Virus record (IMG/VR): IMGVR_UViG_3300045988_106087
Coordinates: 1 to 62,951 of that record
Strand: one strand, 5' to 3'
Length of the DNA: 62,951 nucleotides
From: a virus
Below the pieces are notes generated by a model. The model did not search any database, was not told the DNA's origin, and saw nothing but the letters and a program-made list of their open reading frames with translations. The position numbers were made by a program, and so were the translations under genes. Below are positions 5,460 through 50,612 of the stretch, piece by piece; position 1 is the first letter of the stretch; every line of letters starts with the position of its first letter.

Positions 5460-7052
5460 ATGCCAGTAGTAATTAAACCACAGCCGAAACAGGAGCAGTT
5501 CCTAAGTTCCCCGGCTGACATCGTTATTTATGGCGGTGCTGCAGGTGGGGGAAAAACTTATTCTCTCCTGATGGAAGAGTGCCGGAATAGTCCAAACCCG
5601 AAATTCAATAGCGTTATTTTCCGTAGGAATAACACGCAGATATTCACGAACGGCGGTTTGTGGGATTCTGCCATGGCATTACTCCCTCAAATTGGAGCAG
5701 AGCCGAAAAAGACCCCGAAGCCTACGTTCACATTCCGGAGCGGTGCAAAGGTTGTATTCGATCATCTGGAACGGTACGAGGATTGTCTTGCTTATCAGGG
5801 TTCACAGCTGGTTATGGTTGCGTTCGATGAATTGACGCACTTTGATGAGGATGTATTCTGGTATATGTTTTCTCGTATTCGTTCTGATTCCGGCATTGAT
5901 GGCTATGTACGAGCCACAACGAACCCCGACCCTGATAGTTGGGTTCGGACGTTCATTGACTGGTGGATAGGGGAAGATGGCTTGGCTATCCCGGAGCGAA
6001 GCGGTAAACTCCGCTGGTTTATCCGCATAAATGGGGAGTGCGTCTGGGGAGATTCCAGAATGGAACTACTCAAATACCAGTTTGACGGAGACATCACAGA
6101 AGTAGACAAGTCTATTGATGATACGGATAAACTGTTCATCCTTGACGAAAACGACAGCAAGGCACAAACGGTTATCAAAGAGGGCAGAGAGGGCGTTCTA
6201 TACGTTGTCACAGGAACGAAAGAGTTCTTCCAATGGACAGGCGAAGAATACCACCGATTGATGGCACCAAAGAGCGTGACATTCATCCTCTCCACGTTGC
6301 AAGATAACAAGATCCTGATGCGAAATGATCCGTCATACCTTGCCAATCTGCAATCTCTGCCATATGTGGAGCAGGAGCGTTTGCTTGGCGGCAACTGGAA
6401 CATCCGTCCTGCTGCCGGAATGTACTTCCCACGTGCAAAGGCCAATATCATTGACGAGATCCCGAACGATGTTAAGAAGTGGGTTCGTGCTTGGGACCTT
6501 GCCGGAACAGAGGACAAGAAAAACAATAATCCGGAAGATGGTCCGGCTTATACCGCCGGTGTGCTTATCGGCAAACGGAAGAACGGACGTATTGTGATCG
6601 CTGACGTTATCAATCAGCGGCTTGATTCAAGTGACGTAAGAAGCACCGTTTTGAACACCGCCAAGGCTGACAAGGCAGCATACAAGCGTGTACGCATACG
6701 AATGAACCAAGACCCAGGGCAAGCCGGGAAAGACCAGGCGGCGCAGTATCTCAAATTGCTGTCCGGATTCAGTGTAAATATCGAACGTGAGAGCGGTTCT
6801 AAAGAGACAAGAGCCGAATCCCTATCATCACAATGGATAGGCTTGAAAGGCTCTGAAATGGGCAATGTGGACGTTCTGAATGCACCGTGGACACAATCCT
6901 ACCTTGCACAGATGGACGGCTTTCCGGATAGAAAGTTCAAGGATATGGCCGATGCCAGTTCCACCGGATTCCTCGAACTCGAAAGTATGTCAGGTGGTTC
7001 CGCACCGCCTAAAGATACAGGTAACAGTAAACAATCATATTGGAACAGATAG
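5460..7052 (+). CDS. terL: Terminase large subunit
   Basis: Walker A 'GGAAGGGKTYS', Walker B-like 'VMVAFDELTH', C-terminal nuclease region. Position upstream of the portal gene. Confidence 0.9.
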   Translation: MPVVIKPQPKQEQFLSSPADIVIYGGAAGGGKTYSLLMEECRNSPNPKFNSVIFRRNNTQIFTNGGLWDSAMALLPQIGAEPKKTPKPTFTFRSGAKVVFDHLERYEDCLAYQGSQLVMVAFDELTHFDEDVFWYMFSRIRSDSGIDGYVRATTNPDPDSWVRTFIDWWIGEDGLAIPERSGKLRWFIRINGECVWGDSRMELLKYQFDGDITEVDKSIDDTDKLFILDENDSKAQTVIKEGREGVLYVVTGTKEFFQWTGEEYHRLMAPKSVTFILSTLQDNKILMRNDPSYLANLQSLPYVEQERLLGGNWNIRPAAGMYFPRAKANIIDEIPNDVKKWVRAWDLAGTEDKKNNNPEDGPAYTAGVLIGKRKNGRIVIADVINQRLDSSDVRSTVLNTAKADKAAYKRVRIRMNQDPGQAGKDQAAQYLKLLSGFSVNIERESGSKETRAESLSSQWIGLKGSEMGNVDVLNAPWTQSYLAQMDGFPDRKFKDMADASSTGFLELESMSGGSAPPKDTGNSKQSYWNR

Positions 7053-10386: not shown

Positions 10387-11340
10387 ATGATAAAAACATA
10401 TAAGCAGGTGGACATCGAGAAAGTAGGGAAGATCATCCCAATAACCGCATTGATAGCCACGAAAAAAATCAAAAAATATCTGGATGCAAAGGAGCCGGAA
10501 CTTGTTTTCTTTCTGCATAACCTTTGGAATAACCAGGGCAAGGCAATTACATACAAGGAATTGAGAGAAGCAATCATTGACGGATATCTCTCGGAGAAGT
10601 TGCTTGAAGAGTGGTATCAGGACTATACAAAGTTTGTAGTGGATAAGGTTGCTCCGATGTGGGCGGATGCCATGAAAGAAGCAAACTCCGAACTGTACAA
10701 GAATCCGAAGTTCTATTTTGATCCGATGCAGCAGGAAGTTGTTGACTGGACCAATACGAGGGCGGCCATGTTTGTTACCAACGTAACGAAAGAACAGGTT
10801 GCCGGAATCCGTGAGGTTGTCAAAAGAGCATCCCAGCTGAACGATATGAACGTGGACGAACTTTCAAGGGCAATCCGTCCGATGGTTGGACTTGACTACA
10901 GACAGAGCATTGCAAACATGAACTATTACACGAAAATGATCGAGAACGGTGTAAAGCCGAATACCGCTCTGGAGAAGAGTATCAAGTATTCCGCAAGGCA
11001 GAACAGACATCGTGCATACCGGATTGCAAGAACGGAACTCGTATTTGCATACAATCAAGGATCATACTACGGAACCAAGCAAGCACAGGAGCAAGGACTT
11101 CTCGGAAGAGTGGAAAAGGTATGGTGTACGGCAGAGGATGAGCGCACTTGTGAGATATGCGGAGCATTGGAAGGGAAGAGGATTGCCATGGATGATGATT
11201 TTGATTTTAAAACAAAACTCATTGAGCCTGGTATCAAGAGAGTACCTCCTGCGCATCCTCATTGTCGCTGCACGGTTATCTTTGATGAGGTTGAGCCACC
11301 GATCCAAGCGGTGGAGATTCCTGAAATCATAAAGCAATAA
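10387..11340 (+). CDS. Head morphogenesis protein, SPP1 gp7 / Mu F family
   Basis: 'RIARTELVFAYNQG...WCTAEDERTCEICGALEGK...PPAHPHCRC' is the hallmark of Phage_Mu_F. Confidence 0.9.
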   Translation: MIKTYKQVDIEKVGKIIPITALIATKKIKKYLDAKEPELVFFLHNLWNNQGKAITYKELREAIIDGYLSEKLLEEWYQDYTKFVVDKVAPMWADAMKEANSELYKNPKFYFDPMQQEVVDWTNTRAAMFVTNVTKEQVAGIREVVKRASQLNDMNVDELSRAIRPMVGLDYRQSIANMNYYTKMIENGVKPNTALEKSIKYSARQNRHRAYRIARTELVFAYNQGSYYGTKQAQEQGLLGRVEKVWCTAEDERTCEICGALEGKRIAMDDDFDFKTKLIEPGIKRVPPAHPHCRCTVIFDEVEPPIQAVEIPEIIKQ

Positions 11341-45766: not shown

Positions 45767-46306
45767 ATGGAAAAACAATTTAAGATGGGTTCGCTCTTCG
45801 ATGGGTTGTACTCAATTACCAATGACGGACGTTTATATAGCAATAGAAGAAATAAGTTTTTGCGTCCATCGACAGATAAATACGGCTATCTATATTATGT
45901 GATAAGTATTGATGGGGTAAGAAAAACACTAAAAGCACATAGGCTTGTTGCACAAGCATTTATTCCGAATCCGTACAACAAGCCTACTGTAAACCATAAA
46001 AACGGAATACGAGATGATAACAGGGTTGAAAATCTTGAATGGGCGACTTATAAAGAACAGCAAGAAAATGAAGTTACAAAAGAACGTGCAAAAAAGGTTC
46101 ACGAAAAAACAGATTATAGGAGCATGGGAGCAAAACGGAATTTTGGAAGAAAAAAAACAGCCGTATATAAAGATGGTGTACTCATAGGAAAGTATGAAAC
46201 ATTATTGGAAGCGGCTAGGCAAAATAATACGAATTACTCAAAGGCATCTGAATGTGCTAATGGTAATCGAAAAAAGGCAGGAGGGTTAGTATTTTGTTTC
46301 GAATAG
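45767..46306 (+). CDS. HNH homing endonuclease (NUMOD4 + HNH_3 type)
   Basis: 'YSITNDGRLYS' NUMOD4-like motif. 'KAHRLVAQAFIPNP..KPTVNHKNGIRDDNRVENLEW' HNH core. Confidence 0.85.
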   Translation: MEKQFKMGSLFDGLYSITNDGRLYSNRRNKFLRPSTDKYGYLYYVISIDGVRKTLKAHRLVAQAFIPNPYNKPTVNHKNGIRDDNRVENLEWATYKEQQENEVTKERAKKVHEKTDYRSMGAKRNFGRKKTAVYKDGVLIGKYETLLEAARQNNTNYSKASECANGNRKKAGGLVFCFE

Positions 46307-48108
46307 GAAGTTTATTTTCAGGATCAGGCGGTTTTGAATTAGCCGCCACACTTTGCGGAATGGAGCCAATATGGGCATCCGAGATTGAACCCTTTCCCAT
46401 ACGAGTTACCACGAAACGATTTCCCCACATGAAACACTACGGAGATATATCCTCAATATCCGGCTCAGAACTTGAGCCGGTAGACCTCATTACAGGCGGT
46501 TCACCATGTCAAGATATGTCAGTTGCAGGAAAACGAAAAGGAATGAGCAAAGAATGTCCGAAGTGTGGCTATAAGTCTATAGCCAACGAAGATACGGATA
46601 TTTGCCCGGAGTGTGGTTCTGAAATGCAATACACACGTTCTGGATTGTTCATGGAGCAGATACGAATAATCAAAGAAATGAGGGAAGCAGATGAAAGAAA
46701 TGGAAGGTCAGATCAGTTTATTCGACCTCGATTCATGCTCTGGGAAAATGTTGTCGGAGCATTCTCCAGCAACAAAGGAGAAGATTTTCGAGCCGTACTT
46801 GAAGAAACAGCGAAAGTCAAAGACAAGACCGCCACTATTCCTAGACCTCCGAAAGGAAAATGGAATACAGAGGGATGCATCGTGGGTGATGGGTGGTCCA
46901 TTGCCTGGAGAGTTCTCGATGCTCAATTTTGGGGAGTCCCCCAAAGACGCAGACGAATCGCTCTTGTCGCAGATTTTGCAGGACAATGTGCCGGAGAAAT
47001 ACTATTTAAGCGCAAAGGCTTGTCAAGGAATTTTACGGAGAGCCGAAAATCGTGGCAAGCAACTTCCGGAGATACTTCGAAAGGCATTGATGCATCAAGC
47101 GAACATTGCATAGGTTTTGAACCGGGGGCGGCAACACGAACAGGTGGACATACATACGATAACCAAACTGGATCATTAAGAGCGAACATGGGAGATAATC
47201 AGTTTTGCGTGGCGAAAGAAGAACAATATGCCGTTGATTTTGGCAGAGTTGCTGACAGAATACAGATGAACGCAACAAAGGCGGTAACACTACAAGGATT
47301 AGGCGGTGGTTCAGGAGCAAAGACAGGGTTGTATTGTCTGCCAAAAGATACACCACCGGTAACCATGCAAGTACGATGTGGAAACCCGGTTGGTGGCGGT
47401 AAAGGTGCATTGCTGCAGATAAACAAGTCAGCAACATTGAGTTGTGGTGTTCCACAGACATTATTTGATCCGATACCAATACAATACCAGGCAATCAGCA
47501 ACGGAATGGGGAATGGTTTAGGTGTTGGCAAAGAGGGAGAACCGATGTACTCTCTCATGTCAGAGACAAATCATGGTGTATGTTGTCTGGAAGGGAACGG
47601 CTCTCGTCCGTCACATCGTGGAGACGGATATAAGGAATCCGAAACCATGTACACGCTGAATGCGACAGAACAGCACGCAGTAGCATATGGATTTGAACAG
47701 AAAGCATTCGGTAAATATGATGAATCAGGAAAAGCATCTTGCCTAAAAAGCAGAGATTATAAAGATGCTACTGATTTGATTGTTGAACCATCCTACATAG
47801 TAAGACGGCTGACACCAGTTGAATGTGCAAGATTGCAAGGCTTCTATGACTGGTGGCTTGATGGTTTGGAAACAGAAGAACCGACAGAGGAAGATATAGC
47901 CTTTTGGCGAGAAGTCTTTGAGACACACAGAAATGTAGTCACAGGAGCAAAGAAACCAAAGACGGACAAGCAGATCATAAAATGGTTGCAGAATCCGTAC
48001 TCCGATGGTGCAGCATATAAGTTATGGGGAAACGGAATCGCCCTACCTTGTTTTCTCTACGTGGTAGAGGGAATAAAGGAAGTCCTCGATAGAACCTCAA
48101 ACGAATAA
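46294..48108 (+). CDS. DNA (cytosine-5)-methyltransferase, large, with a zinc-ribbon insertion after motif IV
   Basis: Motif I 'LFSGSGGFE', IV 'GGSPCQDMS', VI 'WENV', VIII 'VPQRRRRIALVA', IX 'RRLTPVECARLQGF', X 'GNGIALP'. CPKC..CPEC insertion at 46555-46632. TTG start after AGGAGG. Confidence 0.9.
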   Translation: MFRIGSLFSGSGGFELAATLCGMEPIWASEIEPFPIRVTTKRFPHMKHYGDISSISGSELEPVDLITGGSPCQDMSVAGKRKGMSKECPKCGYKSIANEDTDICPECGSEMQYTRSGLFMEQIRIIKEMREADERNGRSDQFIRPRFMLWENVVGAFSSNKGEDFRAVLEETAKVKDKTATIPRPPKGKWNTEGCIVGDGWSIAWRVLDAQFWGVPQRRRRIALVADFAGQCAGEILFKRKGLSRNFTESRKSWQATSGDTSKGIDASSEHCIGFEPGAATRTGGHTYDNQTGSLRANMGDNQFCVAKEEQYAVDFGRVADRIQMNATKAVTLQGLGGGSGAKTGLYCLPKDTPPVTMQVRCGNPVGGGKGALLQINKSATLSCGVPQTLFDPIPIQYQAISNGMGNGLGVGKEGEPMYSLMSETNHGVCCLEGNGSRPSHRGDGYKESETMYTLNATEQHAVAYGFEQKAFGKYDESGKASCLKSRDYKDATDLIVEPSYIVRRLTPVECARLQGFYDWWLDGLETEEPTEEDIAFWREVFETHRNVVTGAKKPKTDKQIIKWLQNPYSDGAAYKLWGNGIALPCFLYVVEGIKEVLDRTSNE

Positions 48109-49838: not shown

Positions 49839-50612
49839 GTGGCGCACAAAATAATGATAGGATGCCAAAAAGGCGGAGTTGGTAAGAGCAGTACCGCCGT
49901 GATATTGTCAGAGATATTGGCGGCATCCGGAAGCAAAGTGCTTGTGCTTGATTTAGACAGTCAGGGAAATGCTACGCAGATGCTTACTCAAAAAAGCATC
50001 TATACCTACAGCGGTAATACGATGCTTGAAGCAGTCATGGAGCGGAATCCTGAAAAGTATCTGATCCATCCGAAAGAGAATATTGATCTGATACCGGCAG
50101 ATGATATGTTGGTAACGTTCAGCCGGTACATATACAAGGAAAAGGTATCGAATCCGGTAAAGGCTCTTGGAAGTGCTATCCGAACGATAGAAAACAATTA
50201 TGATTATATCATCATGGATTGCCCTCCAAATCTTGGTGATCTGGTTCTGAATGCTATCGTGTACAGCGACTATATCATCATTCCGATACATCCTGATGGC
50301 TTCGGATCAGATGCTCTTGATCGATTTGTTTCCAATATTGAAGATGCGAAGGAAAACGGTCATACGAAAGCCGAAATCCTTGGTATCTTATTTACCATGA
50401 GAGATACCAGAAATGTTCTGGAGCGTACTCTCGGTAAGAATATCCGTGATAGGTACGGAGATTTAGTGTTTAGTACGGAAATAAAACGCAGAGCAAAGAT
50501 CAAAGAATTTGCTTTTACTGGTACCCGGATGGAGAAAAAATCAGAGATAGACACACTATCTGATTATATAGATCTAGCCAAAGAAGTTATCACAAGAATC
50601 GACAGGAGGTAA
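49839..50612 (+). CDS. parA: ParA-family partition ATPase (short, type Ib-like)
   Basis: Deviant Walker A 'GCQKGGVGKSST', 'VLVLDLDSQGN', 'IIMDCPP'. GTG start. Confidence 0.85.
   Translation: MAHKIMIGCQKGGVGKSSTAVILSEILAASGSKVLVLDLDSQGNATQMLTQKSIYTYSGNTMLEAVMERNPEKYLIHPKENIDLIPADDMLVTFSRYIYKEKVSNPVKALGSAIRTIENNYDYIIMDCPPNLGDLVLNAIVYSDYIIIPIHPDGFGSDALDRFVSNIEDAKENGHTKAEILGILFTMRDTRNVLERTLGKNIRDRYGDLVFSTEIKRRAKIKEFAFTGTRMEKKSEIDTLSDYIDLAKEVITRIDRR

Follow-up and report, generated by a model that had tools for sequence, protein, structure and literature searches.

Does an open reading frame (ORF) of 140 codons that lies wholly inside another gene, on the same strand, encode a protein of its own, or does it stay open by chance under the constraint of the gene around it? 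The question is raised by a phage contig, IMG/VR virus record IMGVR_UViG_3300045988_106087, whose whole stretch of 62,951 nucleotides (nt) is referred to here as the window, and in which a gene for a phage C5 cytosine methyltransferase (MTase; 46294..48108, plus strand, 604 codons, TTG start) contains such a frame at 46691..47113, also on the plus strand. An earlier note on this DNA had described the nested ORF as the longest of its kind in the window and had left two readings side by side, dual coding or a frame kept open by chance; its coordinates, its translation and its rank were all reproduced here. That note had also named three outcomes that would speak against dual coding, namely a +1 frame interrupted by stops in most homologues, undiminished synonymous variation, and a peptide lacking both independent homologues and evidence of translation; each was looked into and none overturned the dual-coding reading. 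The best overall explanation, and one we regard as likely, is a genuine overlapping gene with its own translation, of which the C-terminal domain perhaps serves as an accessory subunit of the MTase.

Selection on two frames of the same bases

The nested ORF starts with ATG and ends, after 140 codons, with a TAG stop (47111-47113); it is in the +1 frame of the MTase, (46691-46294) mod 3 being 1. Immediately 5' of it, the +1 frame ends at a TGA (46679..46681, plus strand) that arises from the MTase codons ATG-AGG (Met129-Arg130), and the AGG codon of Arg130 contributes to a Shine-Dalgarno-like GAGGG (46680..46684, plus strand) located 6 nt before the nested ATG, as had been pointed out previously. 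In the MTase frame the shared bases encode WENV (motif VI) and VPQRRRRIALVADF (motif VIII), again as expected from the earlier note. The second-longest nested ORF of the window has 106 codons (11012-11332) and occurs in the +1 frame of an ORF at 10387-11340.

Conservation of the open frame was assessed in 160 loci (80 from IMG/VR and 80 from GTDB species genomes) that were gathered by degenerate patterns of the MTase frame only and that, except for one close relative, are 37-49% identical to the window's MTase; counts refer to the 156 loci with a recognisable motif VIII. Chosen without reference to the +1 frame, all of these (156/156) have a +1 frame that is free of stops for 131-181 codons (median 135) around motif VIII, with the +2 frame being open for a median of 29 codons. 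The +1 frame opens 78-80 codons ahead of the Q of QRRRR and its stop occurs 55-58 codons past this residue in 128 of 147 loci; upstream, it is closed in 151 of 156 by the TGA formed by the MTase codons ATG-AGG (in the context Glu-Met-Arg). When the synonymous codons of the window's MTase gene were shuffled, the protein and the codon usage of the gene being preserved, none of 1000 randomisations left the +1 frame stop-free over this span, in which 5.05 stops were expected.

The pattern of variation is more informative than openness. In a codon alignment of 71 non-redundant genes, the entropy of MTase third positions is 1.5-1.8 bits outside the overlap, 1.1-1.35 bits in 46642-46940, and falls to 0.3-0.6 bits in 46957-47077, so that the depression of synonymous variability on which the dual-coding reading had been made to depend is found across the ORF. 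In this last interval the most variable phase is MTase position 1, which is the wobble position of the +1 frame (1.2-1.35 bits). The pattern is back to normal right past the +1 stop, and its boundaries coincide with the ends of the ORF.

Site classes lead to the same picture. They were computed from 200 pairs at least 70% identical, as simple p-distances that ignore kinship, with the first letter giving the effect of a change in the MTase frame and the second its effect in the +1 frame (N, altering; S, silent). In flanking regions that encode the MTase only, NN is 0.14-0.16, NS 0.16-0.19 and SN 0.67-0.71; in the N-terminal part of the overlap (N-part) these values are 0.158, 0.235 and 0.52, and in its C-terminal part (C-part, 46946-47110) 0.102, 0.396 and 0.189. 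Changes that are silent in the MTase and alter the +1 product are thus 3.6 times rarer in the C-part than in the flanks, and changes that alter the MTase and are silent in +1 are twice as frequent there as the reverse. The NN/NS ratio is 0.26 in the C-part, 0.67 in the N-part and 0.87 in control regions. In the C-part, purifying selection acts more strongly on the +1 protein than on the MTase frame, and the N-part is only weakly constrained in +1.

Selection also extends to the start region. The nested ATG, which is present in 65 of 68 non-redundant loci, usually lies 4 codons past the TGA and is made of an Asn, Asp or His codon with T as its last base and of the G next to it. At this position the Asn/Asp/His codon ends in T in every case (65/65), as compared to 55% elsewhere in the same genes, and the Arg codon at the Shine-Dalgarno site is AGG in 66 of 68 non-redundant loci against a background of 14% of Arg codons; the choice of AGG places a GAGG about 10 nt 5' of the nested ATG. 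Both ATG and GAGG are therefore fixed by synonymous codon choices that are otherwise unexplained, and these signals have the appearance of a conserved ribosome-binding site rather than of a frameshift site.

The two products appear to divide the shared bases between them. The MTase matches PF00145 of Pfam (E=1.9e-35) as well as PHROG 116, and its ten motifs, read directly off the translation, are found in one single frame (including I FSGSGG, IV GGSPCQ, VI WENV, VIII QRRRR, IX RRLTPVECARLQGF and X GNGIALP). Its AlphaFold model is confident for the catalytic domain (residues 1-244 and 505-604); the predicted local distance difference test (pLDDT) score is below 30 from residue ~245, which fits a linker, yet the entire variable region is poorly modelled. 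The MTase-frame linker that leads from motif VIII to the target-recognition region (residues 229-273; 46978..47112, plus strand) is encoded by the same bases as the nested ORF, and its conservation is limited to the first ~12 residues (EILF.R.G.S), the remainder being variable. In the nested protein, the N-part (46691..46951, plus strand) corresponds to ~87 codons over MTase motifs VI-VIII and is predicted to be disordered; its motifs SGKM and FGESPKD are by-products of the MTase's WENV and WGVPQRRRR, and no MTase motif was found within the nested protein. The conserved C-terminal domain (residues 88-140, ESLLSQILQDNVPEKYYLSAKACQGILRRAENRGKQLPEILRKALMHQANIA; 46952..47110, plus strand) is predicted to be helical. 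The AlphaFold model, for which 46 homologues were used, gives low confidence to residues 1-90 (pLDDT 46-63) and a pLDDT of 82-92 to residues 100-140, with helices at 91-96, 108-121 and 127-139, and thus predicts a small basic helical module behind a disordered leader. Taken together, these data show a complementary constraint in which the probably disordered leader lies over MTase motifs VI-VIII and the helical domain over a tolerant MTase linker.

Breadth across phages and architectural variants

Relatives of the nested peptide, the existence of which the earlier note had left to be checked, number in the thousands in protein searches. A collection of 5.8 billion proteins contains 485 of them, mostly of 139-170 amino acids and 54-98% identical over the full length, all of which are metagenome gene calls and none of which is named; searching with the 55-residue domain likewise returned only short unnamed metagenomic calls. 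With tblastn, the nested peptide matches 134 phage records and the MTase-frame peptide of the same bases 178. The nested peptide also matches 531 plasmids, mostly P1-like, in which the locus is annotated merely as dmt or Dam.

In the 10 GenBank phage records that were compared (P1 dmt, Vibrio CP-T1, mycobacteriophages Omega, Dallas and Constella, Caulobacter BL94, cyanophage Pan4, Pseudomonas D14E, Sinorhizobium NV1.1.1 and Streptococcus Javan105), the match is in the +1 frame relative to the annotated coding sequence (CDS) in 10/10, and the same relation is seen in the record of the Monoglobales phage CHVD 5762. The +1 ORFs of these distant phages have 131-185 codons, with the exception of that of Constella, which has 81 codons after an HNH insertion, and in most of them a GGAG or GAGG occurs 7-9 nt before an ATG. 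In P1 (AF234172.1) the nested ORF occupies 66713-67201, its ATG at 66728 being preceded by a Shine-Dalgarno. A C-terminal domain of ~48 residues, LSQILE..VPEKYYLSAKACQGILRRA..RGK.LP..L..AL, is found in the +1 frame of MTases from P1, Vibrio, Pseudomonas, Caulobacter, Sinorhizobium, cyanobacterial, mycobacterial and streptococcal phages, with the consensus [SC]xLSQ[IV]LExxx[IV]Px[KR][YF][YF]LSxKACxGI[LI]RRAxxRG[KR]xLPxxLxxAL. Over a block of 46 codons in 12 phages, the mean identity is 53.0% in the +1 frame and 32.2% in the MTase frame, both being read from the same bases.

Two of these records show unusual annotations. In Constella (L173), an HNH endonuclease gene is annotated inside the MTase gene (282-1709 and 782-1399), the 81-codon nested ORF retaining the domain, and in Omega (L167, 1622-2926) the MTase is annotated as two CDSs with an in-frame stop between them.

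A second, smaller family of canonical MTases (Streptococcus phage Javan246 type, motif VIII QNRER; L268 998-1561, which is Javan246, and L270-L349) presents the same arrangement, with a +1 ORF of 126-206 codons in 79/79 loci and a +2 frame open for a median of 19 codons. Third-position entropy falls in this family to 0.28 bits over the +1 motif C[SL]LSDILEE.V.E.[YF]FLS, and tblastn yields matches in 223 phage records, including C. difficile phages and Methanobacterium virus Drs3.

A HMMER scan with the 55-residue domain returned 3188 cluster representatives (375 with E<1e-10) and pointed to variants of the architecture. About a quarter of the best 150 matches are 240-508 amino acids long, the nested ORF being extended in frame through the target-recognition domain (TRD) and motifs IX-X. 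On contigs L180 (28-1951) and L181/L182 (L181 1730-3323), this corresponds to a split enzyme in which an alpha chain carries motifs I-VIII and the linker and then ends, and in which a beta ORF in the +1 frame begins with the nested ORF and overlaps alpha by ~390-450 nt. Since the ORF runs into the TRD and motifs IX-X in these rare relatives, the domain is the N-terminal part of the beta half of a split enzyme. This also accounts for the stretch LSQIL..PEKYYLS..GILRRA..RGK.LP, which the earlier note had associated with methyltransferase or mobile-element proteins and which, in such beta-type relatives, shares its frame with the TRD and motifs IX-X. Among 80 IMG/VR loci picked by the domain, 48 have the architecture of the window (a single chain and a short nested ORF), 1 has a clearly split MTase, 19 are fragmented or unclassified, 4 are cut by a contig end, and in 8 the domain motif was not found.

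The nested +1 ORF is also kept in circularly permuted MTases (L001 4823-6268, L168, L170 and L263 1972-3831), in which the motif order is IV-VI-VIII-TRD-IX-X-I and motif I, SLFDGIGGF, stands at the C-terminus; in L001, a 481-codon MTase frame is open beneath the nested ORF. Two further loci, L003 (4781-6900) and L262 (2037-3423), have an MTase frame broken by frameshifts and an intact nested domain, so that the small protein may outlast loss of the enzyme, or the decay could simply be recent. In L001 and L003, the last ~50 +1 residues looked better conserved than the MTase residues from the same bases. These two loci had been considered as free-standing homologues and were rejected as such, an MTase frame being present underneath and the gene caller having favoured the nested ORF; likewise, the short calls P0418 and P0420, which seemed free-standing, both lie over an MTase frame. 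In none of the loci inspected was a free-standing copy of the domain found outside an MTase gene.

Other features of the window concern the MTase gene and its surroundings. The database call of the MTase (P0121, 559 amino acids) begins at ATG 46429 and would drop motif I; TTG 46294, which has a GGAGGG located 8 nt 5' of it, is the likelier start. A CxxC...CxxC zinc-ribbon insertion occupies MTase residues 84-117 (~46543-46644), between motif IV and the helix preceding motif VI; it is common to close relatives only, and its Zn-ribbon matches in Pfam are weak. Directly upstream, an HNH_3/NUMOD4 homing-endonuclease-like ORF (45767-46306, 179 amino acids) overlaps the TTG start by 13 nt. Finally, a large terminase (5460-7052) and a ParA-like gene (49839-50612) identify the window as a phage contig.

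A possible second component of the methyltransferase gene

Comparison across loci shows 46691-47113 to be a genuine dual-coding gene kept by purifying selection, and its conservation among phages whose hosts are very different bacteria, with coliphage P1 among them, makes it almost certainly functional. There are strong reasons to think that ribosomes would initiate at 46691 within the MTase message by means of the internal Shine-Dalgarno and ATG; they would terminate at 47111 and yield a predicted protein of ~15 kDa. Its functional part would be the C-terminal helical domain, the leader being largely a by-product of the underlying catalytic motifs, and this domain might work with the MTase as a small accessory subunit in trans. 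The proposal of an accessory subunit is a tentative one, to which we give somewhat less than an even chance; it was suggested by the obligate linkage of the two frames, by the split relatives, whose domain continues in frame into the TRD and motifs IX-X, and by the precedent of M.EcoHK31I (see below).

Several observations weigh against this interpretation and against its dual-coding basis. The relatives are phylogenetically related, so that the counts given above do not represent independent events. The open frame by itself is only modestly surprising, the median per-sequence probability of an open +1 frame being 0.058 with 2.3 stops expected (0.115 for the N-part and 0.44 for the C-part), and the longest +1 run in other parts of these genes having a median of 79 codons. 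Stop-freeness was dropped as the main statistic for this reason, and since openness is only moderately unusual in this gene family, the decisive evidence is comparative rather than a matter of ORF length. As for function, the window's MTase is complete, with ten motifs in one chain and no obvious need of a second subunit, and the split relatives, with one clear case in 80 loci, are rare and could be decaying genes. Sequence-profile searches of Pfam, NCBIfam and PDB with the 140-residue protein were all empty, and Foldseek of its AlphaFold model against PDB gave nothing at E<1, the small helical module it shows being uninformative. Alignment of the nested family with the MTase family by hhalign gave E=0.2, with a match away from motif IX; the idea that the KYYLSAKACQGIL motif is a copy of motif IX (RRLTPRECARLQGF) was abandoned on this account, what is left being a visual resemblance. 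With E. coli Dcm, the sole local match falls exactly on the canonical stretch between motif VIII and the target-recognition domain (308-335, LAQLLDPMVEAKYILTPVLWKYL) and was not significant either (probability 0.2%, E=0.33), which leaves the resemblance as no more than a lead.

The alternative that survives best accepts the nested protein as real and gives it a job independent of catalysis, such as anti-defence, regulation of the expression or timing of the MTase, or DNA binding. Anti-defence could, as one example, counter the modification-dependent restriction that C5 methylation provokes, and the link to the MTase gene would then merely reflect an origin by overprinting at that place. In its favour are an MTase that is complete as one chain, the small size and the basic, helical nature of the domain behind its disordered leader, the lack of similarity of the domain to parts of the MTase, and the persistence of the domain where the MTase frame is broken (L003, L262) and after the HNH insertion that truncates the leader in Constella. 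The lack of any free-standing copy in the loci inspected argues in the other direction, as do the split relatives, in which the domain is joined in frame to the TRD and motifs IX-X, and the absence of a match to PHROG anti-defence families (PADLOC was not searched). On balance an independent role appears rather unlikely, and an accessory subunit is retained as the working proposal.

Translation of the domain might also be achieved without an internal start, if ribosomes underwent a programmed +1 frameshift somewhere past motif VI-VIII and so made a truncated MTase with an alternative C-terminus. Such a mechanism would agree with the restriction of the strongest +1 constraint to the last ~50 codons and with the fluidity of the frames in the natural variants P0251, L168 and L262. 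It does not explain why the +1 frame is open for ~80 codons 5' of motif VIII in 156/156 loci (per-sequence P 0.115), why the N-part has some +1 constraint (NN/NS 0.67 vs 0.87), or why an ATG and a GAGG, conserved as a Shine-Dalgarno and start of the frame's own, are fixed by synonymous codon choice, with GGAG or GAGG also ahead of the ATG in distant phages. No conserved slippery site was noticed, though no systematic scan was made. Frameshifting is thus considered improbable, and internal initiation is preferred.

Even less can be said for an open +1 frame that is a by-product of MTase protein constraint or of codon bias, which is the chance reading left by the earlier note. It is true that the nested N-terminal motifs SGKM and FGESPKD do derive from WENV and WGVPQRRRR and that long +1 runs occur elsewhere in these genes. 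This reading is nevertheless contradicted by the entropy phases, by the site classes and by the identities in the two frames: in 46957-47077, MTase residues vary and +1 residues do not (NS 0.396 > SN 0.189); the phase of maximal variability switches and then reverts exactly at the +1 stop; and the same bases in 12 phages give 53% identity in +1 and 32% in the MTase frame. It is accordingly regarded as very improbable.

Least probable of all is a constraint on the nucleotides themselves (RNA structure, a binding site or an antisense gene), which antisense ORFs of 88-153 codons in the window might suggest, but which is at odds with a strict three-base period of variation in which the +1 wobble is free, with conservative +1 substitutions across hosts in loci of 38% to 64% GC, with a C-part in which only frames 0 and +1 are open, and with the antisense frames, of which the one in phase with the +1 wobble is interrupted by stops in 97% of relatives (so that the periodicity does not come from an antisense gene) and the other two in 66-75%.

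A broader proposal, for which we would give an even chance, is that C5 MTases of phages and prophages contain an ancient overlapping gene in one very large family at least, and probably in more, across four phyla and including P1 dmt, and that it encodes a detached helical module of ~48 residues needed by the enzyme or for escape from restriction. If this is true, most phage cytosine MTases annotated as single genes would be two-gene, two-protein units, and enzymes that are widely used as markers of an anti-restriction strategy and as epigenetic tools may have an unrecognised second component. The nested gene is carried by dmt of P1, whose genome is a textbook one, and by P1-like plasmids in the hundreds, which makes it directly testable in E. 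coli. It also explains recurrent trouble in annotation, where gene callers pick the nested ORF, its fragments or "split" MTases. Indeed, PHROG 16143 ("DNA methyltransferase", 139 positions) has a match in Omega's nested ORF at E=5e-11 and a weak one in that of the window (E=2e-4); it was apparently built from called copies of the nested ORF, its name being borrowed from the host gene and thus misapplied.

Comparison with known overlapping genes and split methyltransferases

In bacteria and tailed phages, few long overlapping genes on the same strand are solidly backed by evolutionary evidence, and this one is deep, being common to phages of Bacillota, Pseudomonadota, Actinomycetota and Cyanobacteria. 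The nested ORF is not described in the literature searched and its family is unnamed in the databases searched. Overprinted phage genes, and the nested beta chain of one restriction-modification MTase, are already known; what is new, as far as could be established, is the family itself, together with how widely it occurs and the fact that the enzyme around it is complete.

The nearest precedent is M.EcoHK31I, in which a small polypeptide is likewise encoded in another frame wholly inside a C5-MTase gene. According to the published accounts, its beta chain is encoded wholly inside alpha in another frame and is needed for activity (PMC2836561, PMC3404938), has internal starts and tolerates the loss of its N-terminal ~42 residues (PMC2836561), and supplies motif IX, which alpha does not contain (Lee, Kam & Shaw 1995, as related in PMC2836561 and PMC3404938). 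Unlike that alpha chain, the window's MTase carries motif IX (RRLTPVECARLQGF) and all the others. M.EcoHK31I is moreover a single type II restriction-modification enzyme, whereas the nested ORF is family-wide in orphan phage MTases across phyla.

In split C5 MTases of the M.AquI type, alpha contains motifs I-VIII and beta the rest (PMC3404938). Such a split is displayed by the relatives L180 and L181/L182, the beta chain of which starts with the nested ORF. The MTase of the window differs in being one chain of 604 codons, the nested ORF stopping ahead of the target-recognition domain. The dcm-vsr pair of E. coli offers another likeness, that of a +1-frame gene overlapping a C5-MTase gene and having a function tied to cytosine methylation; vsr (mismatch endonuclease) however overlaps just the last ~20 nt of dcm, whereas the nested ORF is wholly internal and, with no Pfam match, has no similarity to Vsr.

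Finally, the locus can be set beside classical overprinting in viruses, as in genes E and K of phiX174 or in the tymovirus movement protein that overlaps the methyltransferase domain of the replicase (PMC8227390). Same-strand dual coding, complementary constraint and disorder in the younger or secondary frame are shared with these cases, and the window's locus provides a natural example of such constraint that may be useful for studies of overprinting and for the design of overlapping genes. Classical overprinted genes stay within one virus family, whereas the nested ORF is found in phages of four bacterial phyla and, unlike them, travels with an enzyme gene of cellular type.

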